Source: Spirochaetota bacterium
Lineage (GTDB): Bacteria; Spirochaetota; UBA4802; UBA5550
Assembly (NCBI GenBank): GCA_963664815.2
Contig: CAXXHB010000003.1
Location: 2,944,001-3,008,000 of the forward strand
Length of the DNA: 64,000 nucleotides
Direction of reading: 5' to 3'
The notes beneath the pieces are model-generated. The model was given only the letters and a program-made list of their open reading frames with translations. It did not search any database and had not been told where the DNA came from. Below are positions 37,064-64,000 of the stretch, piece by piece. The stretch's first letter is position 1. Each line of letters opens with the position of its first letter. The position numbers and the translations under genes were made by a program.

Positions 37064-38062
37064 TTACAGGAACTCCCTGACAGCAGAAATCACTTCATCT
37101 ACAGTAATACTTTTCATGCAATTATAGTTATTATCACATTTAATTCTGACTTTATTCCTGATACATGGAGAACAATTTAAATTTTTATAAATTGTCTTAT
37201 AAACAAAGCCCTCCCCGTATGGCATCCGATCTTCAGGATTTACAGGTCCGAAGAGAGCAACTACAGGCGTCTTTAAACAGTAAGACATATGGAAATAGAA
37301 TGTATCCATTGACACGACAACAGATGCATTTTTAATAAGGTAAAGGAGCTCCTTAAAATTTGTCCTGTTTACAAGATCAACAACTTCCGGGAATTCATTA
37401 TGATTTTCATTAATTCCTGCAACAACAATATGTTTCCCTGTTATTTTTTTTAAAGAAAAAATAAGATCATTAAAATATGGCCATTGTCTCGGATCTTCTC
37501 CAAGATACTGAGCATATATATCCAGAAGGATATAATTTTTCTCTTTCAGATTAAATTTTGTCAGCAGGTCGCATGTATAATCAAAATCAACTGAGTAGTC
37601 TCTTATGACAGGAATTTTAAGATAATCGAGGATTTTAGCCACTTCAAAAAATTTATGTATATTTTCCCTGTTATAAATCTTTCTTTTTGCAGGGAGCATA
37701 AAGTATAACAGATTTCGCAGCGGATTAGGGTGGGTTATAATAAAAAGATCATATTTTTCCGTTTTAAACAGCGTATAGAGTTTATGAAAATTCAGTCGGA
37801 AAAATTTAATAAGCCCTTTTAAAGTAAAATCCATTTCAAAAACTTTGACAGAATCTATATTTTTGTTGTAAGAGAGGAGATTTCCGGAAGCAGTATTAAA
37901 TGTCATAACAGTTATATTCATATCCCTGTTGTATGCTTTAAGAGAGGCTAAAAGGGGGAAGCACATAATCTGATCACCCAGCCCTTGTGGAAGATCAATG
38001 AACACTTTGTTTATATCCCCAGGTTCCCATTTAACCCTGAGTTTCTTTTTTAAATTAATCAT
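37064..38062 (-). CDS. GT9 heptosyltransferase-like protein
   Basis: GLGDQI, DLVNRTN..EL, SMDT..HMS, VALFGP, CSPC..C..C. Confidence 0.88.
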   Translation of the reverse strand: MINLKKKLRVKWEPGDINKVFIDLPQGLGDQIMCFPLLASLKAYNRDMNITVMTFNTASGNLLSYNKNIDSVKVFEMDFTLKGLIKFFRLNFHKLYTLFKTEKYDLFIITHPNPLRNLLYFMLPAKRKIYNRENIHKFFEVAKILDYLKIPVIRDYSVDFDYTCDLLTKFNLKEKNYILLDIYAQYLGEDPRQWPYFNDLIFSLKKITGKHIVVAGINENHNEFPEVVDLVNRTNFKELLYLIKNASVVVSMDTFYFHMSYCLKTPVVALFGPVNPEDRMPYGEGFVYKTIYKNLNCSPCIRNKVRIKCDNNYNCMKSITVDEVISAVREFL

Positions 38063-38603
38063 TTATCAGATACCCTGCAAAATCTATTAGTGACGGGAAT
38101 GTAATATCAGCCATGCTGTTTGATTGTAATGATTCGGAGATAAAAACATTATTAAGAGATCTGCTGCGCCCCAACTCCATATCCGAATCGGAGTCTCCCA
38201 CCATAATGGATCTGCTGAAATCGATTCCGGGAAAGTCACTCTTTGCCTGCAGCAGCATCCCTGGCCGGGGTTTTCTGCAATTGCAATTATCACCCCTGTC
38301 ATGAGGGCAGTGATAGATCCCGTCAATCCTTCCACCGTTCCTTATAATTTCTTTAATCATATATTCATGAACCGATGCAAGATCATCAACGCTCATTACC
38401 CCCAAAGCAATACCGCGCTGGTTTGTCACTATAAATATTCTTTTAAACATCCGGTTGAATATATTCAGCGAATCAAGCACTCCATCGATAAAAACAAACT
38501 CATCAATGGTCTTCACGTAATCGTCAACTATTCTTTTATTTATAACCCCATCCCGGTCGAGAAAGAGAGTCCATGATGTGTCTATATTAAAAATCTTTTT
38601 CAT
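38055..38603 (-). CDS. gmhB: D-glycero-D-manno-heptose 1,7-bisphosphate phosphatase
   Basis: FLDRDGVIN, VTNQRG, CPH..CNCRKP, MVGD. Confidence 0.9.
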   Translation of the reverse strand: MKKIFNIDTSWTLFLDRDGVINKRIVDDYVKTIDEFVFIDGVLDSLNIFNRMFKRIFIVTNQRGIALGVMSVDDLASVHEYMIKEIIRNGGRIDGIYHCPHDRGDNCNCRKPRPGMLLQAKSDFPGIDFSRSIMVGDSDSDMELGRSRSLNNVFISESLQSNSMADITFPSLIDFAGYLIND

Positions 38604-38608
38604 TCAGT

Positions 38609-40015
38609 TTAAGATCGCAGTCTGTTTATTATTCTTGATGTAGAGTAACCCTCAACAAAATCGATGAGCACAACTTCACCGGCATATTCCCCTCCTACAA
38701 CATTCTCAACTGAATAATCTGCACCCTTAACAAGGTAATCCGGCCTTACTTTCTCAATCAGAGAAAGCGGGGTATCTTCATCAAATTTAATTATATAGTC
38801 AATGGATGCAAGCCCTGATAAAACAGCCGCACGGTCATTCTCTTTATTCACAGGGCGGTCTTCCCCTTTAATTCTCTTAACTGAATTATCCGTATTCAAA
38901 CCCAGAATAAGAATATCCCCCAGCTCCTTTGCTTTTTCAAGGTATTTGACATGCCCAATGTGAAGAATATCAAAGCAGCCGTTTGTAAAAACAATACTCT
39001 TCTTCTCTGATCTGAGACTCTCAAGCAATCCGGGTAAATCGTCATACCCGATAATTTTGTTATAAGAGATGTGCAGATCCCTGAAAAGATCAGCCTTCCT
39101 GATAGGAACCGTGCCAAGCTTCCCTACAACAATTCCTGCAGCCATATTGGCAAACTCCACAGAATCACGTAATTTATACCCCGAGGCAATCCCTGCAGCG
39201 AGCGCTGCAATGACTGTATCCCCTGCCCCGGAAACATCATAGACCTCTTTGGCAAATGTGGGGAAATGCTCAACCTGCTTTCCATCAAAAAGTGTCATAC
39301 CCTTCTCGGAACGCGTGATAAGCAGGTTTTTAAAACCTGACCCGGAAAATACAGCAGGGATAGATTTTTCAACTGAGGAATCTTCATTGGGAATGTTATC
39401 ACCGAGAAATTCATTCAGCTCCTTCATATTCGGAGTCACAAGCTCAGCTCCGCTGTATTTTTTCCACTCCTTCCCCTTGGGATCAATAACAACCGGTATA
39501 TTCCTTTTATTTGCCTCGGATATTATAAACCGGCATAACTCCTCTTCGCAGACCCCCTTGTTATAATCGGAGATTACAACAACATTATAATCATCAATAC
39601 AACTTACAACTGCATCCTTAATCCCCTTTTTTGTCTCTTCCGGCAAAGGCCCGGGCTCTTCGTAATCAAGTCTCATCATCTGCTGTCTGTTGCCGACAAC
39701 TCTCACTTTCGTGATTGTCGGAGTGTTTACTTTAAAAAGCAGATGCTTTATGGAATTACGATTTAATACTTCCGCAAGCTGTTCTCCGTTATAATCATTA
39801 CCCGCGATACCGATCAGCATAACTCCCGCTTCAAGTGAGACAATATTATTCGCAACGTTAGCAGCTCCGCCAGGGGCCAGAGTTGTATTTTTTATTCTGA
39901 CAATCGGTACAGGGGCTTCGGGAGAAATTCTGTCAACACTGCCCCACAGGTACTGATCAAGGATAATATCCCCGACTACAAGAACCGATATATCCGAAAA
40001 ATTAAATTTTTCCAT
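38609..40015 (-). CDS. hldE: Bifunctional heptose-7-P kinase / heptose-1-P adenylyltransferase
   Basis: [30 protein letters not shown]; start moved to MEKFNF. Confidence 0.95.
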
Positions 40016-40583
40016 TTTCCACCAGTCCCTTTTCAAAGAGATCGCACAATATATGAATAATAAGAATATGGCCCTCCTGAACCCTTGCAGTTGTTTCCGA
40101 TGGGACAATCAGTTTATAATCTGAATAATTTTTTAAAATTCCGCCATCTCTCCCCAGGAGCGCAACAGTTTCACATCCCCTCTTTTTCGCTTCTGTAAAA
40201 CCCTCCATAACATTACGGCTGTTACCGGAGGTTGACAACCCCATTACAACATCACCCTCAACCCCCAGCGATTCAATCTGCCTGGAGAATATCCTGTCAA
40301 AGGAGTAGTCATTCCCTATTGATGTTATTATAGAGGTATCTGTAGTCAGCGCAATGGCGGGATAACCGCTTCTTTCAATTTTATACCTGCCTACAACTTC
40401 TGCTGCAAAATGCTGCGAATCGGCAGCGCTTCCTCCATTCCCCATTATTAAAAGTTTATTCCCGTTAAACAGAGCTTTATTTATTACAGCAGATATTTCA
40501 TTTATTATATCTTTCATTGAATCAATTTTTCTGACAACATCTATATGTTCTTTTAAAATTTCATCTATCATAGCATCCGCCAT
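40002..40583 (-). CDS. gmhA: Phosphoheptose isomerase
   Basis: [30 protein letters not shown]. Confidence 0.97.
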
Positions 40584-51000: not shown

Positions 51001-52082
51001 TTTTCAATCTCCCTGAAAATATCCAGGAAACGCTTTTCATAAGTATAATTCTTCGTTCTCCTGTATCCGGCAATTCTTATCCTCTCTCTCTCCTCTTCAT
51101 TGAAAAGATAATATATAACCATTCTTTTCAGATCATCGATGTTGGAAAAAACAGAAATCTCGGTACCAATTATATAATAATCCTCAACACCTGGCGAGTA
51201 CTGAGATAGTTCAAAACCACCACATCCAGGTATTTCAAAATTGCGGGCCTTTATCTGTTCAACATTTTTCAAACTTCTGCCCGGAAAGAGGAAAGATTTA
51301 ATCATAAATAATTTACTTCGTAATTGAGAAAAAAGTGAATCTTTAAAACCAAACACAACAAAAGTCATAATTATTTTTTTCAACAAATACTTCCGATACC
51401 TGTAATCAACCGGTATTGAGTTGGAGAGATTAAGATTGATTTTAGAAGCTTTAAATATTTCATTCATCTCACTGAAGGATACACGGCCATTTTTCCACCC
51501 GGTCCCGAAGCAGATAACATCAATGCCGCTTCTTTTTAATTCATAAATTATCCACTCCCGCGTAAGATTTTTACCTCCAACAAATGTAATATCGTATTTA
51601 TAGCTAACTTTTTTTATATCATTCTCTTCAGTGAGAAAATGAGTGGCCCACTGGGACAGGATCACATTTTTACAACCAAACTTTTTATAATCAACTATGC
51701 TGAACTTATCTACTGTAACCGAATATGTAAGCAAAGGTGCGATCCGAGATGTAAAGGAATTAAACCTCCATTGATCATCACAGAACCAGTTTACAGTTTT
51801 ATATTTTTTATTAAGAATTTTCAGGGTGTTTGAAGTAATTTCATTATTCATTAATACAAAGAAAATATAAACAGGATTTAATTCTTCAGCCCTGGCGATA
51901 AGCCTCTCCTGCAGTAAATGGATATCATGCGGATATCCATTATCTTCAAGCCAGAAGGTTGATACATCAGCACCAGCTTTCTTCATCGCCGGCAAAAAAA
52001 CGGCTTTTTCTATTGATTCTCCTCTATCTATAAATCCATAGTCATACTTTAAAAAAGCAGCTAAAATCAGCATTTTATACAA
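50997..52082 (-). CDS. CgeB/DUF3880-like glycosyltransferase
   Basis: WFCDD.WR, FVGG, SKINLN, KARNFEIPGCGGF. Confidence 0.8.
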   Translation of the reverse strand: MYKMLILAAFLKYDYGFIDRGESIEKAVFLPAMKKAGADVSTFWLEDNGYPHDIHLLQERLIARAEELNPVYIFFVLMNNEITSNTLKILNKKYKTVNWFCDDQWRFNSFTSRIAPLLTYSVTVDKFSIVDYKKFGCKNVILSQWATHFLTEENDIKKVSYKYDITFVGGKNLTREWIIYELKRSGIDVICFGTGWKNGRVSFSEMNEIFKASKINLNLSNSIPVDYRYRKYLLKKIIMTFVVFGFKDSLFSQLRSKLFMIKSFLFPGRSLKNVEQIKARNFEIPGCGGFELSQYSPGVEDYYIIGTEISVFSNIDDLKRMVIYYLFNEEERERIRIAGYRRTKNYTYEKRFLDIFREIEK

Positions 52083-53280
52083 TTACCTCTTCAAACGCTT
52101 TAACAATTGTTTTAAGATCATCTATGGAAAGATACTGATGACACCCTATGTAAAAAGCATTGTTGCCAATATAATCTGCATTAGGAAGCTTTTCGTTATA
52201 AATTGTCTTGAAATCCTTATAGGCTGGCTGCTGAGTGGGGATACTTAAAAAAATCGGACGGGATTCTATCCCTTTTTTAAGAAGTGCTGATCTTAGATCT
52301 TCACGCTTTATTTTAGAAGATGGTCTTACAATTATCGGATATGCCAGATAGCTGTAGTCCTCAGAATATTTTGGCAAAATAAGTGAACCGGAATATTTTG
52401 ATAAATGTTCATTAAGAAATTTAACATTAAACTGCCGTTTCACTATTATCTCATCAAATTTTTTAAGCTGCAGCAGACCAAGAGCGGGCTGGAACTCAGT
52501 GGTTTTAAAGTTATACCCGATAAATTCATGTAAAAACCGGGGATCATGTTCCATTTCAGATTTTGGACATATACCTTTTGGACGGGTACATACAGGGCAT
52601 TCACAAACACGGCCATTGGCCTTTATCTTCTTAATATTCTTATAAATTTTTTCATCATCCGTTACGACAGCTCCCATTTCACCAACCTGAATATTGTGGG
52701 CAATATAAAATGAATAATCTGCAAGTAGTGAGAGTGTCCCGGTATTTTTACCTTTATATTTTGTGCCATGAGCCTGCGCAGTGTCTTCAAAAGTAAGAAG
52801 ATCATATTTTTTTGCTATTTCATTTATACGATCCATATCAGCAGGATACCCCATAAGGTGTACCGGTAGAATTATACAGTATTCATCTGGATTACTTTGA
52901 GAAAGTAACAATTCCACCTGGTCTGCAATAATATCGAATGTTTCCAGATGAACATCAACATATACAGGTTCAAGGCCAACCAGCTTTATAGCATTAGATG
53001 TTGCAATGTAAGTCGTCGGTGTAGTAATAACCTTTGCTCCCTTCCTTACCTTTGGGAATCTGTCATCATATAGCAGAGCAGTCAAGCCGGCAATAAGAGC
53101 TGATGTTCCGGAGTTAACAAGAACACAATATTTTGTTCCTATAATTTTAGAGAATTCTCTTTCAAAATTTAAAACAAACTTTCCTTCAGATACACGTCCT
53201 GTTTCGAGTACCTCCATTACTGCTTTTTTCTCTTCATCACCTATTATATAATCACCGACCTGAATCATTTTTTTTAACAT
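52075..53280 (-). CDS. PLP/PMP-dependent 3-dehydratase, ColD/RfbH-like
   Basis: DegT fold with His in place of the PLP Lys (SFYIAHNIQVGEMG); Cys-rich GRVCECPVCTRPKGIC. Confidence 0.75.
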   Translation of the reverse strand: MLKKMIQVGDYIIGDEEKKAVMEVLETGRVSEGKFVLNFEREFSKIIGTKYCVLVNSGTSALIAGLTALLYDDRFPKVRKGAKVITTPTTYIATSNAIKLVGLEPVYVDVHLETFDIIADQVELLLSQSNPDEYCIILPVHLMGYPADMDRINEIAKKYDLLTFEDTAQAHGTKYKGKNTGTLSLLADYSFYIAHNIQVGEMGAVVTDDEKIYKNIKKIKANGRVCECPVCTRPKGICPKSEMEHDPRFLHEFIGYNFKTTEFQPALGLLQLKKFDEIIVKRQFNVKFLNEHLSKYSGSLILPKYSEDYSYLAYPIIVRPSSKIKREDLRSALLKKGIESRPIFLSIPTQQPAYKDFKTIYNEKLPNADYIGNNAFYIGCHQYLSIDDLKTIVKAFEEVIV

Positions 53281-53295
53281 ATATTCCCCTTCAAC

Positions 53296-54210
53296 TTATA
53301 CTAGTGTCTTATAATACTCATAGGTATTTGCTATTCCCTCTTCAAGAGATACCCTGGCCTGCCATCCGATACCTGCAGCGAGTGAAACATCAACCAGTTT
53401 CTGTTTCATACCTGTTGGTTTTGACAGATCATGTTTAAATTCGCCTTTATAACCTATTACTTCGGCAGCTATTCTATAATAATCATTCACTGAATAATCA
53501 TGACCAAGTCCTACATTTATTATCTCAGGGATAGAATCATAGTTTTCAATTGAAAACATTACAAATCTTACAAGATCATCAACATGCATAAACTCGCGGC
53601 GCGCTGTCCCGTCTCCCCATATTTCCACACTATCTTTTTTATTGATAACAGCATCATGAATTTTAGTAATAATCGCCGGAATCATGTGAGAATTTTCAGG
53701 ATCAAACTTATCATACTTCCCGTATAAATTACACGGCACCAGCGTTTTATAATTATATTGCGAATTTTCACTCTTTATATAACTACATAATCTCTGCGTT
53801 ACTATTTTCGCAAGGGCGTATCCTTCGTTGGTCGGTTCAGGTTCACCCTTTAATATATAGCTTTCCCTCAATGGATTGGGAGCATCATGGGGGAACATAC
53901 AGGAAGTCCCTATGTTGATCAAACGGGTTATCCCAACTCTGTATGCTGCTAGAACTACATTCCGTCCCATATCCATGTTTTCGACAAGAAACCGGACTGG
54001 ATTCTTTATATTAGCAGCTATACCACCCACAAGCCCGGCGCAATGAATAATAAAATCAGGTTGCTCTGTTAAAAAATAATTAAAAACCTGATCATATTCG
54101 CATAAATCAAGTTCATCAATAGATGGTGTTAGAACATGGTAACATTTATCAAGCGATTCTTTTATATTACGCCCTACAAGCCCGGAACCCCCGGTCAATA
54201 AAATACGCAT
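53296..54210 (-). CDS. GDP-fucose/GDP-colitose synthase (Fcl/ColC-like)
   Basis: TGGSGLVG, AGLVGGI.AN, SC, EPTNEGYALAK, SHMIP, WGDG..RREF. Confidence 0.9.
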   Translation of the reverse strand: MRILLTGGSGLVGRNIKESLDKCYHVLTPSIDELDLCEYDQVFNYFLTEQPDFIIHCAGLVGGIAANIKNPVRFLVENMDMGRNVVLAAYRVGITRLINIGTSCMFPHDAPNPLRESYILKGEPEPTNEGYALAKIVTQRLCSYIKSENSQYNYKTLVPCNLYGKYDKFDPENSHMIPAIITKIHDAVINKKDSVEIWGDGTARREFMHVDDLVRFVMFSIENYDSIPEIINVGLGHDYSVNDYYRIAAEVIGYKGEFKHDLSKPTGMKQKLVDVSLAAGIGWQARVSLEEGIANTYEYYKTLV

Positions 54211-54328: not shown

Positions 54329-55261
54329 TTATATATTTTTATTTAACAACATTCTGACTTCCTGTGTAATAGCATCCATAGAATTAAACTGTGGTAAATA
54401 TCCAAATTTTTCAGCAGTTTTATTTTTAGAATAGTATATATTCTTGATTCCTGTTGCCTGAATTATACCGACAGATTGATTGATATGATAACATAAACCA
54501 AACTCTTTGCTAAAAGCTTCAAGAATTTCAAATTTTCTGACCGGTAAAGAGCTATAACAATCCAATACACCATTAAATGGATTTTCTGTAACCAGCAGCA
54601 CTAATTTAAAAAGATCGCGCGGATCAATATAGTCTCTGACAATATCTGAATCATTTGTTAACAATTCAGTTTTATTTATTATAGATCTTACAATATCTGT
54701 CATCAGATAGGATGATCCTAAATCTATAAATCGACTGAAAAAGCTGAAGACTCTTAAATCGACAATTTTTAGTTCTTGCAGGGATCTATGTTTAGATTCA
54801 CTGTATATTTTTGACAATCGATAATGATCAGAGCTTCGGATGTTATTCACAGGTATTTCAGTTGTTGATTTTTCTGTAACAGGAGCGCTGAACTCAGTAC
54901 CATAGACTGCACCGCTGCTGAAATTTATATAAAGTGTTTCCTGATTGTTATAGATATAACCTATTATTAAATTATCAAACATTTCTGTAATTCTATAAAT
55001 ATCATATCCGGCGGCAATCACTTTATCAGGAGTACCAAAACCTATACAATTAATAATAACATCCGATTTACCTTTAAACGTTTCAAAATAATTAATATCC
55101 AGAATTGTAATCCTGTTATCAGTATTTACATTTTCTATTAAAAACTCTTTAACAGATTCCGTATTCCGTGCGAACAAGAGCAATTCATAATCTCTGAAGA
55201 AATGCAGAATCAGGTTTTTTGCAATATGGCTTGTTGCTCCTAATATGATTACTTTCTTCAA
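54329..55261 (-). CDS. NAD-dependent epimerase/reductase (extended SDR)
   Basis: GATSHIA, SSGAVYG, YRLSK. Confidence 0.85.
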   Translation of the reverse strand: MKKVIILGATSHIAKNLILHFFRDYELLLFARNTESVKEFLIENVNTDNRITILDINYFETFKGKSDVIINCIGFGTPDKVIAAGYDIYRITEMFDNLIIGYIYNNQETLYINFSSGAVYGTEFSAPVTEKSTTEIPVNNIRSSDHYRLSKIYSESKHRSLQELKIVDLRVFSFFSRFIDLGSSYLMTDIVRSIINKTELLTNDSDIVRDYIDPRDLFKLVLLVTENPFNGVLDCYSSLPVRKFEILEAFSKEFGLCYHINQSVGIIQATGIKNIYYSKNKTAEKFGYLPQFNSMDAITQEVRMLLNKNI

Positions 55262-57072
55262 GACAAATCCTTTATCAATTCATTGAAAATCTCATCATCA
55301 ATAAACGGAGACATATTCTGAAGCGGCATCGATACCATCGATCCATTTTCAAGTTTTTTTGAGCTCACTGTCGGTATTACTTCCTGATTAATATTTGTTA
55401 ATACTTCAATTACACATGGTCCTTTAGAATTCAATATTTCAGAAACATTACTATCTAACTCGCTTTCAGAATCAAAATAATAGTATGATAATTCAAATGC
55501 CTCTGATATTTTTTTTATAGAAGGAATAAAAACACCGGAATTTTTATCCACACCTGCATATAGGCTATCAAAATAGTTGTCCTGAGTATTCTTTATTGAT
55601 AAATATCCATCATTGTTAAATATTATTATTTTTACATTGACCCTGTTTTTAGAGATTACAGCCAATTCATGAATATTAGTACAGAATGAACCATCTCCAG
55701 TAAAACATAAAACTGTAGAATTTTCTTTTGCCAGAAAAGCACCAGTAGCAGCAGGGAGCGCCCAGCCCATTGCACCCAATCCTCCGGAAGTTATGATTCT
55801 CTGATTATCTTTGACCTTCCATGCATGACCGATAGTATAAAATGCTGACCCGGCATCATTTACAATAACTTCATTGCCTTCCGTCTTTTGATTAATAATA
55901 TCAATAGCTTTATAAATATTAATTCTGCCGTCTTCTTTTTTATGAGGTTCTTTCATAATATCAAATGAATACTTGGTCTGCAACAGCCATTTATTCCAGC
56001 CTGATCCTCTATTTTTTTCAAATAATTTTCGATCTGTTTTACTCAGCACAGAATGTACAAAACTTTGCACATCAGAATAACAATGGCATGAAACATTCAC
56101 CTCCTCCCTCTCAAAAAGTGATTTATCCATATCAACTCTGACAATATATGCATCAGGAGCAAATTTCTCCATCTCATAGCCGGTTGTCAAAGTATGCAAA
56201 CTTGATCCAATACACAAAATAAAGTCTGCATATTGAACAGCAAAATTACCAGCCCGGTCACCCTTTATACCCGGATGCCCGATGAAACTCTCATCATGAT
56301 AACCAATAATATCTTTACCCAGTTGAGTTGTAACAACAGGCGTGTGTGTCAGTTCAGATAGTTTTTTTATTTCATCGGGAATATTTGCCACCCTTACCCC
56401 ATGCCCAGCCAATATTACAGGTTTTTTGGAATTCCTCCACTTATTAATTATTATATCAAGAATTTCATCATTCGGCTTGATTTTTTGATCTACCGGATTA
56501 TAATATCGCACCTTTTCAAAATCAATATAAGAACCTTGTATATCTACAGGTATATCTATAAGTACCGGACCAGGCCGTCCAGCCCTGGCTTCGGATATTG
56601 CTTTACCTAATATATATGGAATATCATTGGGATTATCAAGAAACCATGTAAACTTTGTTACAGGTTTTACTATTTCTATTATATCAGCTTCAAAAGTTCC
56701 GAATTGTCTCAACCCATCAATTCCGGAATTATGTATTGTCTGACTTTTTTTGCTTTGCCCGGTGATGAATACTAAAGGAATTGAATCATACCATGCTCCG
56801 GCTACCGGCATTACAATATTTAATGCACCGGGGCCGCTTGTTGCAAAACAAACACCAATGTCACCTTTCAGCCTGGAATATGCTTCTGCAGCAACCCCTG
56901 CACATTGTTCGTGGTGATGAAAAACAAGTTTCAATTCCGGATTTCTTGCAACCCCATCCAGAATATGCATCATCCCCCCTCCGGATAAAAGAAAAACTGT
57001 ATCAACACCATGACTGGACAATGTATTAGCAATATAATCAGCAACCCTTTGTTTCATAGTAACCTGTGTCAT
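55258..57072 (-). CDS. ThDP-dependent carboligase, YerE/acetolactate synthase-like
   Basis: GGG.MH, HHEQ, TSGPG, GAMGWALP, GDGS..NN ThDP motif; located in the CDP-dideoxysugar operon. Confidence 0.9.
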   Translation of the reverse strand: MTQVTMKQRVADYIANTLSSHGVDTVFLLSGGGMMHILDGVARNPELKLVFHHHEQCAGVAAEAYSRLKGDIGVCFATSGPGALNIVMPVAGAWYDSIPLVFITGQSKKSQTIHNSGIDGLRQFGTFEADIIEIVKPVTKFTWFLDNPNDIPYILGKAISEARAGRPGPVLIDIPVDIQGSYIDFEKVRYYNPVDQKIKPNDEILDIIINKWRNSKKPVILAGHGVRVANIPDEIKKLSELTHTPVVTTQLGKDIIGYHDESFIGHPGIKGDRAGNFAVQYADFILCIGSSLHTLTTGYEMEKFAPDAYIVRVDMDKSLFEREEVNVSCHCYSDVQSFVHSVLSKTDRKLFEKNRGSGWNKWLLQTKYSFDIMKEPHKKEDGRINIYKAIDIINQKTEGNEVIVNDAGSAFYTIGHAWKVKDNQRIITSGGLGAMGWALPAATGAFLAKENSTVLCFTGDGSFCTNIHELAVISKNRVNVKIIIFNNDGYLSIKNTQDNYFDSLYAGVDKNSGVFIPSIKKISEAFELSYYYFDSESELDSNVSEILNSKGPCVIEVLTNINQEVIPTVSSKKLENGSMVSMPLQNMSPFIDDEIFNELIKDLS

Positions 57073-57077
57073 TCATT

Positions 57078-57821
57078 TTATAATAAATTCATAATACATT
57101 TTTTCAACTGGAAAGTATCAGGCTTGAGTACCAGAAAATCACCATCTGAATCTTTTTTTAAACCGGAATAATTATCAATCATGTAACCGACTGTTTTCCC
57201 CGCATTTTTTATTTTTTTTGTTGCTTCATTTACAAAATTACTGACCAGCGGATGCGTAAGCTGCCCACGAACTCCAAGATTGCATGACATATCATATATG
57301 CCAAGATAGAATACATCAATATCTTCTATTTTTAAAATAGAATCCAGGTTCGAATAAGATTCATTGTTTTCAATTATCACTCCAAGCAACGGGAAACCGG
57401 AAGCCATATAAACCGAATCATCATTACCTGTGAAATCGCCCGCTTTTGTAAATGGATTATACCCTCTGTTACCCTTCGGTGAAAACAGCGAATATTCAAC
57501 CAGACGTTCCGCATCGGAGAGGGTTTTAATTTGCGGACAAATTATTCCATGAGCTCCGACATCGAGGACACGCTGAATGACCGTATGTTCAATTTCAGGT
57601 ATTCGTACTAACGGAGAACAACCATACATGGATACTGCCTGCACTGATCCTGCTATTATGTCCGGATCAAATGAACCATGCTCCATATCAAGGATAATAA
57701 AATCCAGACCAGTTGATGCAAGAATTTCTGATACAACTGTATTGGGAATAATTGACCAAATACCGATAACGTCTTTTTTTAAAATAATTTTATTTTTTAC
57801 ATAATTATTTATATTAAACAT
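57078..57821 (-). CDS. HpcH/HpaI class II pyruvate aldolase
   Basis: LDMEHG, VRIP, LDVGAHG, P.GNRG, IIEN, G.YD; start moved to ATG 57821. Confidence 0.88.
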   Translation of the reverse strand: MFNINNYVKNKIILKKDVIGIWSIIPNTVVSEILASTGLDFIILDMEHGSFDPDIIAGSVQAVSMYGCSPLVRIPEIEHTVIQRVLDVGAHGIICPQIKTLSDAERLVEYSLFSPKGNRGYNPFTKAGDFTGNDDSVYMASGFPLLGVIIENNESYSNLDSILKIEDIDVFYLGIYDMSCNLGVRGQLTHPLVSNFVNEATKKIKNAGKTVGYMIDNYSGLKKDSDGDFLVLKPDTFQLKKCIMNLL

Positions 57822-58872
57822 AAATCTTTGTATTCCATTTAATAGTTCTTTCAACAGCAGTCTTTATATCTGTATATACCTTTAAACCGAATTCATCCCG
57901 TGCAGAACTTATATCCGGGATAATTCTGTTATTCGGAATAACTCCAGCCAGTGAACAATTCAGCAGTACATCAGGTCGCGGATTAAAACAACCCGAGACA
58001 ATCTGGGCCAGCTCCTGAAGTGTTTTCCCCTCATCTGATCCAACATTATATACCCGGCCGGTCATTGTTTTTATCATTATTGTCAGGAGCCAGAGAGCCA
58101 GATCTGCTCCATACATAATCGTCCGTACAGTTGTTCCATCACCCAGGATTCTGATTGATCTGCCATGCATTGCATCAGAGATGAAGCTGTTAGTAGCCCA
58201 TGGCGCATCTTTATCCTGATATGGCCCCAGAAATGAAAAAGGACGGACAATTCCAACCGGGAGCCTTAATTCCCCTCTTGCAGCTGTTATTAAAGATTCA
58301 GCAAATTTTTTTGCTTCTGCATAAACCGAATTCACATTGGTTGAAGATATAATACCGATATATTCTTCCCTGATTTTGTCCATAGTATCAGGCTGTGCTC
58401 CATAAACATTACCGGAACTCAGGTAAAGCAGCATTTTAAGATTGGCTACACGATCAGCCGCCCGCAGCAGTGAACTTGTTCCTTCAGAAATTGTGGTAAT
58501 TGTATCAAACGGTCTAGTACTGTGAGTGCGGTTATCAGGATTACCGGCAGCATGTATTATATAATTAAGGTTTCTTGGCAATTCACTGATTGTTCTGATA
58601 TCACTTCTTATAAAATTGATATAACTCTTATTTGCAAGATGTGGAACCGCAGACAAAAACTTTTCTCTATTCCTCGACATGACGTGTATTTCAATTCCAC
58701 TATTCATACTATCATTCATAAAAGCTAAAAATTCAGTCAGCCACAATCCGATAAAACCTGTTCCGCCGGTTATCATAACAGATGAATTGCTCAAATCCTC
58801 CAGTGAAATAGAAGCGCTTTTAAAAACCCGCTCACAATCTTCCCGTATGAAATCAGATGCGGCTATTGTCAT
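57814..58872 (-). CDS. NAD-dependent epimerase/dehydratase/reductase (extended SDR)
   Basis: TGGTGFIG, SSGNVYG, YAEAK, GDGTTVR. Confidence 0.88.
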   Translation of the reverse strand: MTIAASDFIREDCERVFKSASISLEDLSNSSVMITGGTGFIGLWLTEFLAFMNDSMNSGIEIHVMSRNREKFLSAVPHLANKSYINFIRSDIRTISELPRNLNYIIHAAGNPDNRTHSTRPFDTITTISEGTSSLLRAADRVANLKMLLYLSSGNVYGAQPDTMDKIREEYIGIISSTNVNSVYAEAKKFAESLITAARGELRLPVGIVRPFSFLGPYQDKDAPWATNSFISDAMHGRSIRILGDGTTVRTIMYGADLALWLLTIMIKTMTGRVYNVGSDEGKTLQELAQIVSGCFNPRPDVLLNCSLAGVIPNNRIIPDISSARDEFGLKVYTDIKTAVERTIKWNTKIYV

Positions 58873-59903
58873 TTCATAACTCCTTCTGTTTTCCCCTTAT
58901 TGGCAAGGTCAGAAGCTACTTCAATTATAATATCTTCCTGACCTGCTATAATTTTCCGTCTGCCTAATTCAACAAATATATCTCTCGGATCAACATTAAA
59001 CTCCTGCGCTATACGGAGAACCGGTTTTACAAATCCGGAGAAAACACCAGACATACCACTGACAATACTGATTGATCTGATAACAGGTATTTCCTTCATC
59101 AATTCATTCTCGGCTAAATCACTTGCATCAAGCAGTTTATACAGGTCAATGCCTGTTTTATAACCCATTCTCTGTAATACGGCTACCAGAACTTCAAGCT
59201 GCGCATTACCTGCCCCGGCACCGAACCCGCGCGCACTGCCATCAACAATTGTTGCACCGGATTCGATTGCTGTAATTGAATTAGCAACCCCCATACCCAG
59301 GTTATTATGGGCATGAAAACCAACTGGTATAGACAGATTATCACATAAATAATTGACCCTTTCTTTTACGTCTTTTTGAATATAGTATCCGGCTGAATCC
59401 ATTATTATAACTGCTTCAGCTCCATAGATTTCCATCTTTTTTGCTTCTTCACAGAGCATCTCTTTTGATAACATATGCGACATCATCAGTACGCCAAATA
59501 CATCTTTACCCTGCTCCCTGCAGAACCGGATATGTCTTTCAGTGATATCGGCTTCAGAGCAATGGGATGCAATACGGAATACATCCACACCATAATCTAT
59601 TGCAGGTTTTAAATCACGTTCGATTGTAGCAAATCCGGGAATTACATGAATCCCGAGTTTTGACTTTTTCAAATTTTGACGTGCAGTTTTAAGCATAACT
59701 TCATCAGATGTTTTTGATATCCCCACCTGCAGCGATGACGCACCAAGACCATTCCCATGTCCGACCTCAACAATTTTAATACCTGCGCCATCAGCCGCTT
59801 TACAATATAAAGCAATCTGCTCTTTAGATAATTGATGCGCTATCGCATGATTCCCATCACGTAATGATGCATCACTTACTAATATTTTTTTTTCATTCTT
59901 CAT
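58869..59903 (-). CDS. dmpG: 4-hydroxy-2-oxovalerate aldolase
   Basis: DASLRDGNH, EVGHGNGLG, HCSEAD, GFHAHNNLG, GAGAGN, GQED. Confidence 0.93.
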   Translation of the reverse strand: MKNEKKILVSDASLRDGNHAIAHQLSKEQIALYCKAADGAGIKIVEVGHGNGLGASSLQVGISKTSDEVMLKTARQNLKKSKLGIHVIPGFATIERDLKPAIDYGVDVFRIASHCSEADITERHIRFCREQGKDVFGVLMMSHMLSKEMLCEEAKKMEIYGAEAVIIMDSAGYYIQKDVKERVNYLCDNLSIPVGFHAHNNLGMGVANSITAIESGATIVDGSARGFGAGAGNAQLEVLVAVLQRMGYKTGIDLYKLLDASDLAENELMKEIPVIRSISIVSGMSGVFSGFVKPVLRIAQEFNVDPRDIFVELGRRKIIAGQEDIIIEVASDLANKGKTEGVMK

Positions 59904-60771
59904 TTATCAGGTCTGTCTTTGCAATTTCTTCCGCTATTGCTATAGCAGCACAATTAATTATATCAAGGTTTCCCGCATATTCAGGCAGGTAATCCCCTAA
60001 TCCCCTTACTTTTACCATAATAACAATCCTGTCATTTTCAACAATAGGTTCAACTAATAAACGGTAGCCTGGTACGTACATATTAACTTTTTTTATTATA
60101 TCAAATAATACCGGTTTAAGTGAAAGCAGATCCGGTTTAGCCACCTGAGCAAAAATTGTAGTCTGCATATCAATACAGGGAATCGCAGGATTCAGATTAA
60201 GAATTGCCTTTGTATGCTTTGCCCCGGAAAACTGTTTAACTCCCTGTTCTGTAGTAGCTACATACTCATCAAGATTCATTCTCGTTGCCGGTCCTGCACT
60301 TTTAGATGCTATACTTGAGACAACTTCTATATATTCAACATCCTTCTGTGATTGGCCTATGGCATAAGCAATTGGAATTGATGCCTGTCCTCCGCAGGTT
60401 ATCATATTTAAATTCGGCTCACTCAGGCATTCCTGCAAATTTACAGCAGGCGCACACATTTTACCCACCCTTGCGGGAGTTAAATCAATAGCCTTTATCC
60501 CCAGATTCTTCAAAATCGGTGCATGAATATAATGATCTTTTGCAGATGTAGCATCAAATACCAGATCAATTAAATCAGGATTTTCCTTTATATAATTTAT
60601 ACTTTTATCAGAACATAATACACCAACAGATTGCGCTTTTGACATACCTGGCGAAGAAAACTCCCTGCCAATAAATGCAACACAATCCAGATATGAAGAT
60701 CTTTTTATTTTAATTAATAAATCAGTCCCGATATTTCCGGATCCTAATATTGCAACGCTATATTTTTTCAT
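59893..60771 (-). CDS. dmpF: Acetaldehyde dehydrogenase (acylating)
   Basis: GSGNIGTDL, DATSA, DLTPA, NMITCGGQA, SAGPATR, GDYLP.YAGNLDI. Confidence 0.95.
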   Translation of the reverse strand: MKKYSVAILGSGNIGTDLLIKIKRSSYLDCVAFIGREFSSPGMSKAQSVGVLCSDKSINYIKENPDLIDLVFDATSAKDHYIHAPILKNLGIKAIDLTPARVGKMCAPAVNLQECLSEPNLNMITCGGQASIPIAYAIGQSQKDVEYIEVVSSIASKSAGPATRMNLDEYVATTEQGVKQFSGAKHTKAILNLNPAIPCIDMQTTIFAQVAKPDLLSLKPVLFDIIKKVNMYVPGYRLLVEPIVENDRIVIMVKVRGLGDYLPEYAGNLDIINCAAIAIAEEIAKTDLINEE

Positions 60772-60798
60772 AAATCCTGCTGACAAACATTAATATAA

Positions 60799-62154
60799 TT
60801 AATTTTCAGTAACAAACCAGGTAATTCTTTCAATCATATACTCAATCGCCTCCCTGCTCATACCCGGATAGAGACCAATCCAGAAACTGTCATTCATTAT
60901 TCTGTCTGTATTTTCAAGTTCATCAATAATCCTGTAGTCGACACCAGGTATAAGGCTGTTAAAACATGGGTGACGAGTTATATTCCCCGCGAAAAGATTA
61001 CGTGTCTGTATGTTCCTGCTTTCAAGATGTTCAACAAGCTGATTCCGTGTAAATTTAACACCATTTCGCAGGGTCATAATGAAACCGAACCAGCTTGGAT
61101 CGCTGCATTCAGTTGCTTTGGGGAGAATAAGCTTATCCTCAAGCGGCTTGAGGCCATTATATAATAACGAAAAATTCTCTTTCCTCTTTTCAACAAATTC
61201 CGGAAATTTTTCCAGCTGCGCACATCCTATCGCTGCCTGCATATCAGTAGCTTTAAGGTTATATCCGAAGTGGCTGTAAACATATTTATGATCATACCCG
61301 AAAGGGAGAGTTCCATGCTGACCGCTGAACCTGTTCTTGCAGGTATTGTCAACTCCGCTGTCACACCAGCAGTCACGCCCCCAGTCCCTGATTGACAGCA
61401 TTATTTTTTTTAAAACAGGATTATCCGTATAAACAGCACCACCTTCCCCCATTGTCATATGGTGCGGTGGATAGAAACTCGAAGTACCAATATCACCCCA
61501 TGTACCGGTAAGTTTTCCGTCAAACTTTGAACCTAAAGCATCACAGTTATCTTCGATAAACCAGAGGTTGTTCTTTTTACAGAAATCAGATACAGCTTTG
61601 AGATTAAACGGGTTTCCAAGAGTATGAGCAATCATCACTGCCTTTGTTTTTGATGACAAGGCTTTCTGCATGAGGCTCACATCAATATTAAATGTTTCCA
61701 GTTCAACATCAACAAAAACCGGAACTGCCCCATACTGAATTATCGGCGCAACTGTAGTAGGAAAACCTGCAGCCACAGTAATTACTTCATCACCACGTTT
61801 TACAGCACGGCCTTTCAACAAAGGTGATGTTAAAGTCATAAATGCCAGCAGGTTTGCCGAGGAACCTGAATTGACCAGAAAAGACCATTTAACTCCGAGA
61901 TACCCGGCCAGCTTCCTCTCAAACTCGGCAGAAAAACGTCCATATGTCAGCCAGAATTCAAGAGATGAATCAACGAGATTTGCGATCTCCCTTTCATCAA
62001 ACACCCGGCCTGCATAATTGATACGTGACTTTCCCGGTGTAAAGGATTTATCCTTTTCCGCATCAACAGCGTAATAGTATTCCTTCACTTTATCAAGAAT
62101 CTCTTTTTTTAACGATTCACTTCTATTCATGCCTGTTCCTGTTTTCATCGTCAT
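60799..62154 (-). CDS. rfbH: CDP-4-keto-6-deoxyglucose 3-dehydratase (E1)
   Basis: VNSGSSANL, SFYPPHHMTMGEGG, DWGRDCWC..DNTC, YDHKY. Confidence 0.95.
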   Translation of the reverse strand: MTMKTGTGMNRSESLKKEILDKVKEYYYAVDAEKDKSFTPGKSRINYAGRVFDEREIANLVDSSLEFWLTYGRFSAEFERKLAGYLGVKWSFLVNSGSSANLLAFMTLTSPLLKGRAVKRGDEVITVAAGFPTTVAPIIQYGAVPVFVDVELETFNIDVSLMQKALSSKTKAVMIAHTLGNPFNLKAVSDFCKKNNLWFIEDNCDALGSKFDGKLTGTWGDIGTSSFYPPHHMTMGEGGAVYTDNPVLKKIMLSIRDWGRDCWCDSGVDNTCKNRFSGQHGTLPFGYDHKYVYSHFGYNLKATDMQAAIGCAQLEKFPEFVEKRKENFSLLYNGLKPLEDKLILPKATECSDPSWFGFIMTLRNGVKFTRNQLVEHLESRNIQTRNLFAGNITRHPCFNSLIPGVDYRIIDELENTDRIMNDSFWIGLYPGMSREAIEYMIERITWFVTEN

Positions 62155-63255
62155 TCATTTTAATGCCCACGGAGTATCAATATTTTCCGCATCTTTTATA
62201 TAGCATACAAGCTGTTCTGTACTGATTATATTTTTACTCTTATAAAATTCCCTGTACCATGATGCAGTTTTTTCAAAAGTCTGTTCAGCACCCCATATCC
62301 CTTTCCATTTGAGTTTAATATGGGCCTTTGAACAATCAAGTTTTAAAAGACCGGCCTCATGCGGATTGCTGCAGTCCGGCTGAAGCCTGTATTTTAAATC
62401 CGGCCATGATTTTTTAATAGATTCCACTACACTTTTAACCGTAATAGACTCTTCATCTCCAGGGCCAAAATTCCATGCTTCGGCAAACTCTCTTTTCCCC
62501 TCCAGAAGCTTCTGCCCCAGCATCAGATATCCGCTTAACGGCTCAAGTACATGCTGCCAGGGCCTTGTTGATTCAGGAGACCTTATTACAACTTCTTCCC
62601 CGCGACTTACAGCCTTCATTATATCCGGGATAAGCCGGTCTTCAGACCAGTCCCCGCCACCTATAACATTTCCAGCCCTTACACTTGAAACAAGGACACT
62701 ATGATCTTTTCCGTATCTATCAATATTGAAAAACGAATTTCTATACGCAGAAGTAACAAGCTCTGCACAACCTTTTGACGCACTGTAAGGATCATGCCCA
62801 CCCATGGGATCATTCTCCCGGTAACCCCAGACCCACTCCCTGTTTTCATAACACTTATCTGTTGTTATGTTTACTACAGCTTTTACAGAATCAGAACCCC
62901 GGCATGCATTTAACAGATTTACAGCTCCCATTACATTTGTTTCAAAAGTTTCACGAGGTTCCCTGTATGATAATCTTACAAGTGGCTGCGCGGCCATATG
63001 AATTACAATATCAGGTTTAAAATTTTTAATCGCATTATAAAGTTTATTATAATCCCTTATGTCATCTATCGTTTCAGATATTTTAATTCCAAGCAGATTA
63101 TAATGTGAAGGCTCATAAAGGGGTTTAAGCGAATATCCATAAACCTCCGCCCCGAGTTTATTCAGCCATAAAGACATCCAGGACCCTTTAAAACCGGTAT
63201 GGCCTGTGAGAAAAACTTTTTTGTCTTTATAAATTCCGCCAAAGAGATTATCCAA
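62155..63255 (-). CDS. rfbG: CDP-glucose 4,6-dehydratase
   Basis: TGHTGFKGSW, AAQPLV, TTDKCY, DPYSASK, RAGNVIGGGDW, RPWQHVLEPL. Confidence 0.97.
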   Translation of the reverse strand: MDNLFGGIYKDKKVFLTGHTGFKGSWMSLWLNKLGAEVYGYSLKPLYEPSHYNLLGIKISETIDDIRDYNKLYNAIKNFKPDIVIHMAAQPLVRLSYREPRETFETNVMGAVNLLNACRGSDSVKAVVNITTDKCYENREWVWGYRENDPMGGHDPYSASKGCAELVTSAYRNSFFNIDRYGKDHSVLVSSVRAGNVIGGGDWSEDRLIPDIMKAVSRGEEVVIRSPESTRPWQHVLEPLSGYLMLGQKLLEGKREFAEAWNFGPGDEESITVKSVVESIKKSWPDLKYRLQPDCSNPHEAGLLKLDCSKAHIKLKWKGIWGAEQTFEKTASWYREFYKSKNIISTEQLVCYIKDAENIDTPWALK

Positions 63256-63264
63256 TTCATTACC

Positions 63265-64000
63265 TCACCAGAATTTCCATGGAGCATTGTTTGCCTCCCA
63301 CATTGCATTCAGATCAATTTTATCACGCAGTGTATCCATCGGTTTCCAGAAACCGTTGTGTTTATATGCCGAAAGCTCACCGGTTGATGCAAGTTTTTCA
63401 AGAGGATCCCTTTCCCATACTGTAGAATCATTTTTCAGAAGATCAAATACTGATGGCTCAAGTACAAAAAAACCGCCATTTACCCAGCTCCCGTCACCCT
63501 TAGGTTTTTCCTGAAATGATTTTATCATACTGCCTTCTATTTCAAGCGCACCAAATTTCCCTGAAGGGAGAACAGCTGTTAAAGTGGCCTCTTTCCCGCC
63601 AGATTTATGAAATTTGATTAGTGCATTTATATCAATATCTCCTACGCCATCACCATATGTCATCATAAAGGTTTCATTCCCTATATACTCTTCAACTCTT
63701 TTTAAGCGCCCGCCGGTCATAGTTTCAGCGCCGGTATCTACAAGTGTAACTTTCCACGGTTCTGCCTTGGTATTATGTACTATTCTTTCCTGGCTCTGAT
63801 TTGAAAAATCAAAGGTTATATCAGAATTATGAAGAAAATAGTGATAAAAATATTCTTTAATATAATATCCCTTATAGCCGAGACAGACAATAAAATCATT
63901 AAATCCATAATGTGAATAGATTTTCATAATATGCCATAGTATCGGTTTACCTCCAATTTCGACCATAGGTTTAGGACGAATATCTGTCTCCTCGCTGAGT
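63265..64000 (-). CDS. rfbF: Glucose-1-phosphate cytidylyltransferase (5' end outside the window)
   Basis: Frame stays open to the window edge (LSEETDIRPKPMVEIGGKPILWHIMK); TMTGGR, TYGDG, GFWKPMDTLRD. Confidence 0.95.
   Translation of the reverse strand, partial: LSEETDIRPKPMVEIGGKPILWHIMKIYSHYGFNDFIVCLGYKGYYIKEYFYHYFLHNSDITFDFSNQSQERIVHNTKAEPWKVTLVDTGAETMTGGRLKRVEEYIGNETFMMTYGDGVGDIDINALIKFHKSGGKEATLTAVLPSGKFGALEIEGSMIKSFQEKPKGDGSWVNGGFFVLEPSVFDLLKNDSTVWERDPLEKLASTGELSAYKHNGFWKPMDTLRDKIDLNAMWEANNAPWKFW

Follow-up and report, generated by a model that had tools for sequence, protein, structure and literature searches.

A nine-gene spirochete operon predicted to make an erwiniose-type branched sugar for the O-antigen

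Introduction

Which sugar is made by an operon that joins genes for a cytidine diphosphate (CDP)-linked deoxysugar to genes for an acetaldehyde dehydrogenase, two pyruvate aldolases and a thiamine diphosphate (ThDP)-dependent carboligase? The question is raised by nine consecutive genes at one end of a 64,000-nucleotide (nt) stretch of contig CAXXHB010000003.1 from an uncultured Spirochaetota bacterium, hereafter the window. In order of transcription, the genes are rfbF, rfbG, rfbH, dmpF, dmpG, SDR1, HpcH, the ThDP gene and SDR2, in which SDR denotes a short-chain dehydrogenase/reductase and HpcH an HpcH/HpaI-family aldolase. A sequence-only reading of the window had proposed that DmpF and DmpG (DmpFG) act biosynthetically here and supply 4-hydroxy-2-oxovalerate, also named 4-hydroxy-2-oxopentanoate (HOPA), to a YerE-like ThDP enzyme, giving an erwiniose-type sugar. 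It had further suggested that an additional HpcH aldolase and SDR2 could make a different or longer donor, and hence a possibly undescribed sugar.

The first of these proposals coincides with a pathway logic that has been in print since 2022, when Steitz et al. proposed a unifying scheme for acyl-branched sugars (Angew. Chem., PMC9306805), and the operon belongs to the erwiniose-type family published there. In Pectobacterium atrosepticum SCRI1043, this family is represented by the ThDP enzyme ErwE (WP_011093010), the reductase ErwF, the acetaldehyde dehydrogenase ErwJ and the BphI-like pyruvate aldolase ErwI, whose genes adjoin those for CDP-4-keto-3,6-dideoxyglucose (PMC9306805). ErwI and ErwJ are DmpG- and DmpF-like, respectively, and were proposed to supply HOPA to ErwE; purified ErwE coupled HOPA to a ketone surrogate, preferred the R enantiomer and rejected pyruvate (PMC9306805). 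From the comparisons described below, we estimate a probability of about three in four that the window operon makes a CDP-activated erwiniose-type sugar for the O-antigen of this uncultured spirochete. The predicted product, in which we have the same confidence, is a 3,6-dideoxyhexose with a 1,3-dihydroxybutyl branch at C4.

The carboligase groups with ErwE and travels with a conserved gene module

Seventy-nine ThDP enzymes were arranged in a quick maximum-likelihood tree, in which the window protein fell into a 58-row clade (support of 99 in the Shimodaira-Hasegawa-like approximate likelihood ratio test, SH-aLRT) together with the Pectobacterium ErwE orthologue. All 43 rows with both dmpFG and HpcH belonged to this clade, namely the window and 42 loci, one of them that of Pectobacterium, while the loci of the other clade, comprising 20 rows, contained neither dmpFG nor HpcH. 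There were 31 alignment columns that separated the module-linked enzymes from the 20-row clade, and at 30 of these the window enzyme had the residue of the module consensus. Its membership in the clade of the ErwE orthologue supports the link that the sequence-only reading had drawn from DmpFG to the carboligase. Its nearest rows in the tree came from a Holophaga metagenome-assembled genome (MAG) and a Planctomycetota MAG (support 100), a placement that points to probable horizontal spread.

The gene neighbourhood was surveyed across species. One genome per species was scanned with an alignment of ThDP homologues, which yielded 80 related loci, and these were searched by tblastn with the window proteins as queries; dmpFG was called where dmpF and dmpG both reached at least 40% identity. 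As a result, dmpFG was found in 43 of the 80 loci, and a 44th (L073) carried a more divergent pair. HpcH accompanied dmpFG in 43/43 loci and SDR1 in 41/43, so that HpcH, which the sequence-only reading had regarded as an extra, proved to be a constant companion of the pair; SDR2 was found in 19 of the 43, and rfbH lay within the fetched flanks in 29. HpcH without dmpFG occurred in four loci, at least two of which were cut by contig ends and one of which was L073. The spacing was compact as well, with dmpF and dmpG within 150 nt of each other in 41 of the 43 loci, dmpG and SDR1 within 200 nt in 38, and HpcH and the ThDP gene within 150 nt in 37. The exact nine-gene order of the window recurred in five loci. 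The loci with the module were labelled as belonging to more than 10 phyla, including Pseudomonadota, Bdellovibrionota, Bacillota, Acidobacteriota, Planctomycetota, Armatimonadota, Nitrospirota, Peregrinibacteria and Spirochaetota. Since the module occurs in more than half of the loci and across phyla, acyl-branched 3,6-dideoxyhexoses are probably far commoner in surface glycans than one would judge from the small number of solved structures.

Predicted route from glucose-1-phosphate to the branched sugar

The steps of the pathway were assigned from family membership. RfbF, RfbG and RfbH would convert glucose-1-phosphate into CDP-4-keto-3,6-dideoxy-D-glucose, with RfbH receiving its electrons from a reductase encoded elsewhere. 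In parallel, the DmpF-like enzyme would reduce acetyl-CoA to acetaldehyde, and the DmpG-like aldolase would join acetaldehyde and pyruvate to form HOPA, for which the 4R enantiomer is predicted from residues His86 and Phe288. The ThDP enzyme would then decarboxylate HOPA and attach the 3-hydroxybutanoyl unit so formed at the C4 ketone of the sugar, and SDR2, a YerF/ErwF-like protein, would reduce the new side-chain ketone.

The residues expected of these families were retained. In RfbH, the pattern Cys204-X57-Cys262-X-Cys264-X7-Cys272 was invariant in 51/51 homologues, and its four-Cys spacing of X57, X1 and X7 matches the E1 [2Fe-2S] motif. The DmpF-like dehydrogenase has a conserved Cys131 within an ITCGGQ motif. 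SDR2 contains the Tyr-x3-Lys motif and is 37% identical to the product of the gene just after erwE in a Pectobacterium versatile locus (L015), and an Arg after its second beta-strand is also present, as in SDR1. Such an Arg in SDRs usually accompanies NADP(H).

A stereochemical signature in the DmpG-like aldolase

HMMER alignments showed that the window aldolase carries His86 and Phe288 at the positions of Leu87 and Tyr290 in BphI, whereas Leu and Tyr occupy these positions in all four solved catabolic aldolases (8ih7, 1nvm, 4jn6 and 4lrs). The window protein was aligned with 44 locus-encoded DmpG-like proteins. Among the resulting 45 sequences, the Tyr290 position was Phe in every case and the Leu87 position was His in 43 and Phe in two, with the Pectobacterium copy following the His/Phe pattern. 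The active-site Arg, Asp and three His residues, which are catalytic or bind metal, were kept in 45/45 of these cluster-linked sequences.

The excerpted text of the review by Baker and Seah describes BphI as strictly 4S, making and cleaving only 4S-HOPA; in the same excerpts, stereocontrol is lost upon the Y290F or Y290S substitution, and the L87N/Y290F and L87W/Y290F variants are 4R-specific (PMC3962088). By analogy with these engineered variants, we infer that the cluster-linked DmpG-like proteins form a subfamily of HOPA aldolases that are by nature 4R-selective or, failing that, 4R-permissive. The predicted 4R selectivity matches both the (R)-donor preference of ErwE and the R centre in erwiniose. 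The changes engineered into BphI to invert its stereochemistry have natural equivalents in the cluster-linked aldolases, and the His/Phe pattern offers a testable sequence rule for 4R-selective pyruvate aldolases and would explain the R configuration in erwiniose. The window pair resembles the catabolic BphI-BphJ and DmpG-DmpF complexes in fold and family, in its catalytic Arg, Asp and His residues, in having the communication domain and in the dehydrogenase Cys. It differs from them in its predicted synthetic direction, in having His/Phe rather than Leu/Tyr, and in lacking meta-cleavage neighbours.

The same nine gene families occur in the erwiniose cluster of Pectobacterium

The P. versatile locus L015 reads E3, rfbF, rfbG, rfbH, HpcH, ThDP gene, SDR2, dmpF, dmpG and SDR1, followed by genes for a protein of 438 amino acids (aa) and a family 2 glycosyltransferase (GT2). 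Its ThDP protein falls into the same 90%-identity cluster as ErwE (WP_011093010.1, identical to CAG74336.1). In strain SCRI1043, an HpcH homologue (CAG74335.1) bears the accession just before that of ErwE and is 90% identical to the L015 copy; adjacent accessions for HpcH and ErwE were also found in four further Pectobacterium records. Taken together, the gene set of L015 and the position of HpcH beside erwE in SCRI1043 indicate that the erwiniose cluster contains the same nine gene families as the window. The likeness extends to the ThDP enzymes, which belong to one clade, and to the His/Phe residues of the DmpG-like aldolases, and the identity to the Pectobacterium pair is 61% for the DmpG-like and 54% for the DmpF-like protein. 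Three marks of an erwiniose-type cluster were found in the window, namely an ErwE-type ThDP enzyme, an adjacent DmpG/DmpF-like pair and a YerF/ErwF-like reductase. The two clusters differ in gene order, which is dmpF-dmpG-SDR1-HpcH-ThDP-SDR2 in the window and HpcH-ThDP-SDR2-dmpF-dmpG-SDR1 in Pectobacterium. They also differ in the E3 gene, which is present in the Pectobacterium locus and was found neither in the spirochete locus nor in its genome, and in the host, an uncultured Spirochaetota bacterium as opposed to an enterobacterium.

This correspondence bears most directly on the alternative that HpcH and SDR1 extend or alter the donor and that the branched sugar of the spirochete is a longer one, or one undescribed in another respect; a C7 dihydroxy keto acid, for example, could arise if 3-hydroxybutanal from HOPA were joined to a second pyruvate. 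The idea draws on the complete set of catalytic residues kept by HpcH and on the lack of a step for HpcH and SDR1 in the published scheme. HpcH-family aldolases were also proposed as donor-forming enzymes for the C6/C7 branches of caryophyllose and gastriose, and ErwE itself converted 4-hydroxy-2-oxohexanoate better than HOPA (76% versus 49%; PMC9306805, Table 1). However, the same gene set in P. atrosepticum is linked to erwiniose, which has a C4 branch only. The window operon holds nothing beyond the Pectobacterium set, and 30 of the 31 clade signature residues are common to the window and Pectobacterium ThDP enzymes. We consider a longer donor unlikely. The suggestion of an undescribed sugar in the sequence-only reading would fall, on its own terms, if the same genes had previously been assigned to a known sugar, and the Pectobacterium cluster, with these nine genes plus E3, is such a case.

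Caryophyllose is a longer-branched relative of erwiniose that carries a C6 chain on C4, according to the excerpted text of PMC7821131. Its cluster in Mycobacterium marinum resembles the window operon in that an HpcH-family aldolase gene (MMAR_2331) adjoins the ThDP gene (MMAR_2332) and the same acceptor is proposed; it differs, as described in the main text of PMC9306805, in having no DmpF/DmpG pair and in its C6 branch. In a caryophyllose-type cluster, HpcH would be the only donor-forming enzyme and the branch would be C6, whereas DmpFG is also present in the window and the matching Pectobacterium set gives a C4 branch. The notion that erwiniose and caryophyllose are extended at C6 rather than branched at C4 was rejected, because the excerpts of PMC7821131 put the caryophyllose chain on C4; the scheme of Steitz et al. 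therefore stands.

The window operon also has much in common with YerE/YerF of yersiniose A biosynthesis in Yersinia pseudotuberculosis, including the acceptor sugar pathway, the ThDP family, a YerF-like reductase and the logic of adding a decarboxylated 2-keto acid to the C4 ketone. The carboligase might accordingly use pyruvate and introduce a C2 acetyl branch, with the aldolase genes serving another purpose, a view favoured by its membership in the YerE family and by its best solved match (8rph, 303 bits), which is the YerE-like enzyme JanthE and also accepts pyruvate, as stated in the excerpted text of PMC12188165. YerE, however, uses pyruvate in a pathway that needs no aldolase, whereas the window enzyme travels with two aldolases and an acetaldehyde dehydrogenase in its own operon. 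In place of the absence of dedicated donor-forming genes that defines a yersiniose-type cluster, dmpFG, HpcH and SDR1 were seen to be gained and lost together with this ThDP clade. Furthermore, the window enzyme lies outside the 20-row clade without aldolase genes, and its characterised clade-mate ErwE rejects pyruvate (PMC9306805). A yersiniose-type product is very improbable on these grounds.

The weakest alternative, a chance assembly of a catabolic meta-cleavage DmpFG pair and an acetolactate synthase, could appeal to DmpF and DmpG, which score above cutoff with the NCBIfam equivalog models of the catabolic enzymes, and to acetolactate synthase models as the best NCBIfam matches of the ThDP enzyme. 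It is already contradicted by the conserved synteny that recurs in 43 loci of many phyla and deserves practically no weight. Every acetolactate synthase model stayed below its cutoff (for example, TIGR00118 with 363 versus 538 bits), the genes lie end to end or overlapping within an operon for O-antigen synthesis, and the stereochemical residues differ from those of 4/4 solved catabolic aldolases. There are no hydratase or dioxygenase neighbours, and no aromatic meta-cleavage family was matched among the 49 window open reading frames (ORFs) scanned, in keeping with the sequence-only reading.

Candidate roles of HpcH and SDR1

Neither HpcH nor SDR1 is named in the main text of PMC9306805 (Supporting Information aside), where the legend of Scheme 2A lists five gene classes only. 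Likewise, no paper giving either of them a step was found in the literature on caryophyllose aldolases and HOPA/ThDP branched sugars, and no literature was found on a 4-hydroxy-2-oxovalerate aldolase with rfb genes in Leptospira.

The window HpcH scored 133 bits with TIGR02311 (HpaI), below the cutoff of 369, and its best solved match was 7et8 (E = 4e-29). The Glu-His, Arg, Glu and Asp positions were invariant in 48/48 sequences, and by the offset to chain 4b5s, His59 and Arg84 of the window protein correspond to residues 45 and 70. In HpaI, the corresponding residues are His45 of the Glu-His motif, the catalytic Arg70 and the metal-binding Glu149 and Asp175. With its active-site residues kept and with HpaI-type pyruvate aldolases as its best solved and curated relatives, HpcH is probably active.

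The position directly upstream of the ThDP gene was also compared among ErwE-clade loci without dmpFG and HpcH. In both scanned loci of one subclade, this gene encoded a PanB-like ketopantoate hydroxymethyltransferase (L029, 9068-9955; L060, 9114-9977), and in the single scanned locus of another subclade it encoded a class I/II aminotransferase (L043, 8745-9911). The upstream genes of L041, L049 and L045 were of other kinds, including an inositol-monophosphatase family protein and a nucleotidyltransferase. The PanB-like and aminotransferase genes support the view of this position as a donor-forming slot; their loci look like alternative donor modules, which would predict other undescribed C4-branched sugars. 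On the strength of this upstream-slot pattern and of the MMAR_2331-MMAR_2332 pairing, HpcH is most likely another pyruvate aldolase, which would make the same 4-hydroxy-2-oxo acid as DmpG, or bring it to equilibrium, for use by the carboligase, a role of the kind proposed for MMAR_2331 in caryophyllose; this is our best guess, made by analogy. A role of HpcH as a HOPA racemase that corrects a 4S product of DmpG was rated less likely, because the DmpG-like enzymes carry the His/Phe pattern.

SDR1 has a GxxGxxG motif, a Ser-Tyr184-Lys188 triad and the conserved Arg after beta-2. Its best solved match was 8vr2, for which a literature search gave no relevant publication, followed by UDP-xylose synthases. 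SDR1 comes and goes with dmpFG and HpcH and ought therefore to have a target peculiar to the C4 branch; our best guess is that it is probably an NADPH-type reductase working on a C4-branch intermediate. Two other assignments were rejected. SDR1 as a replacement for E3 is at odds with the Pectobacterium locus, which has both, and SDR1 as a ring epimerase is at odds with the name of erwiniose, which we read as keeping the gluco configuration at C2 and the yersiniose configuration at C4.

Because HpcH and SDR1 are inherited with dmpFG almost without exception and across many phyla, they may perform an undescribed obligatory step, in which case the published four-enzyme erwiniose scheme (ErwJ, ErwI, ErwE and ErwF) would be incomplete. 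We offer this tentatively and regard it as more doubtful than not. HpcH could then be the aldolase that really forms the donor, or edits its stereochemistry, and passes the keto acid on to the carboligase, and SDR1 could reduce the branch a second time; in certain hosts, this spirochete among them, the two might yield a branch unlike that of erwiniose. The breadth of the module, the His/Phe stereochemical signature and the two conserved genes without a step go beyond the main text of PMC9306805 (Supporting Information aside) and may be of interest to glycobiology and biocatalysis groups.

Host genome and related modules

The genome searched comprises 5.2 Mb in three contigs, with the window on the 4.27-Mb contig. 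The spirochete host assumed from the sequence alone was supported by the window-encoded Rho, whose homologues at 89-96% identity come from MAGs with the label Spirochaetota or Spirochaetes. Among the kin, none of the seven other genomes of the GTDB genus (eight in total) had a DmpG-like gene at E <= 1e-30, and one of the 121 other genomes of the GTDB order had one at E <= 1e-60, several of the kin genomes being incomplete.

A kin genome of the same family (G117) carries rfbF, rfbG and rfbH 81-84% identical to those of the window on a contig of 8652 nt (L086). Its branch module is different: dmpFG (54% identity) adjoins the gene for a ThDP enzyme that belongs to the other clade (32% identity), and its DmpG-like aldolase has Tyr/Phe at the stereochemical positions. 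The combination of conserved rfbFGH with a different dmpFG and ThDP enzyme thus presents the branch module as a swappable cassette behind the CDP-sugar genes. In the Logan assemblies, the closest relatives of the window ThDP enzyme (P0002, 76%) and HpcH (P0122, 78%) each lie on a contig of 28,754 nt, which probably derives from a close relative with the same module.

Evidence weighing against an erwiniose-type product

Several observations count against assigning an erwiniose-type sugar to the window operon. The window proteins are only 37-63% identical to the Pectobacterium proteins, with 47% for the ThDP enzyme, while HOPA acceptance, R preference and pyruvate rejection were observed in vitro for Pectobacterium ErwE only (PMC9306805). 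The one signature column at which the window carboligase departs from the module consensus is Tyr500, which is Phe in 91% of the module-linked enzymes. The engineered 4R-specific BphI variants carry Asn or Trp at position 87 and not His, and a 4R-selective DmpG would make HpcH look redundant as a second HOPA aldolase. In addition, HpcH and SDR1 are almost always present yet have no step in the published scheme, which means either that the scheme is incomplete or that these genes have another role.

No orthologue of E3 (RfbI/DdhD) was found in the spirochete genome, in which the sole match was weak (25% identity over 199 residues, query 118-316, in a flavin/nicotinamide dinucleotide (FAD/NAD) domain). 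E3 was encoded in 6 of the 80 related loci and missing from 74, and its absence is thus typical of these clusters. Finally, neither HpcH nor SDR1 was found on the 8.6-kb contig of G117, which ends just past the ThDP gene; with its dmpFG beside a ThDP enzyme of the other clade, this contig indicates that the module is not obligatory in every setting.

Operon layout and O-antigen setting

The nine genes span 54329-64038 on the minus strand, of which 54329-64000 lies in the window, as established from the ORF list and from Pfam and NCBIfam scans (Table 1). The 5' end of rfbF lies 38 nt beyond the window, and the full protein of 257 aa was taken from the genome (L002:266-1039). Judged by ORF coordinates and called protein lengths, neighbouring genes of the nine overlap by up to 11 nt or are separated by up to 20 nt, in agreement with the tightly packed operon of the sequence-only reading, and a gap of 118 nt follows SDR2. 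The operon is embedded in a long O-antigen locus, where rmlACD, ADP-heptose genes and a dTDP-glucose dehydratase gene accompany those for glycosyltransferases and Wzx- and Wzy-like proteins.

Table 1. Genes of the operon and two neighbouring gene groups, with window positions, strands and the profile matches behind each assignment (PMP, pyridoxamine phosphate; TPP, thiamine pyrophosphate).
Feature	Position	Strand	Evidence
rfbF, glucose-1-phosphate cytidylyltransferase	63265-64038	-	TIGR02623 equivalog, 416 bits vs cutoff 300
rfbG, CDP-glucose 4,6-dehydratase	62155-63255	-	TIGR02622, 494 bits vs cutoff 278
rfbH (E1), PMP-/[2Fe-2S]-dependent CDP-6-deoxy-4-keto-glucose 3-dehydrase	60799-62154	-	NF011936, 727 vs 423
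dmpF, DmpF/BphJ/ErwJ-like acylating (acetylating) acetaldehyde dehydrogenase	59893-60786	-	TIGR03215, 374 bits vs cutoff 282
dmpG, DmpG/BphI/ErwI-like 4-hydroxy-2-oxopentanoate aldolase	58869-59903	-	TIGR03217, 400 vs 286
SDR1, extended SDR of nucleotide-sugar type, 352 aa	57814-58872	-	Pfam Epimerase, 116 bits
HpcH, HpcH/HpaI-family class II pyruvate aldolase, 247 aa	57078-57821	-	PF03328, 71 bits
ThDP gene, YerE/ErwE-family ThDP-dependent carboligase, 599 aa	55258-57057	-	Pfam, three TPP domains
SDR2, YerF/ErwF-like side-chain ketoreductase, 310 aa	54329-55261	-	Pfam Epimerase, 55 bits
GDP-fucose-synthase-like SDR and DegT-family enzyme	52075-54210	-	SDR, 296 bits vs cutoff 500; DegT-family enzyme, best model RfbH, 246 bits, below cutoff
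GmhA, HldE, GmhB and family-9 heptosyltransferase	37064-40583	-	

The GDP-fucose-synthase-like SDR and the DegT-family enzyme lie side by side just downstream of the operon, and the pair is reminiscent of the ColC/ColD genes of colitose. On the other side, 4.2-9.9 kb upstream of the end of the window (L002:5227-10948), there are two radical S-adenosylmethionine (SAM) enzymes, the first with a B12-binding domain according to Pfam, beside a SAM methyltransferase, an FAD amine-oxidase-like protein and a GT2/DUF2304 pair; these genes hint at C-methylated or otherwise unusual sugars. Given the genes for GmhA, HldE, GmhB and a heptosyltransferase, the spirochete appears to make ADP-heptose for a lipopolysaccharide-like core.

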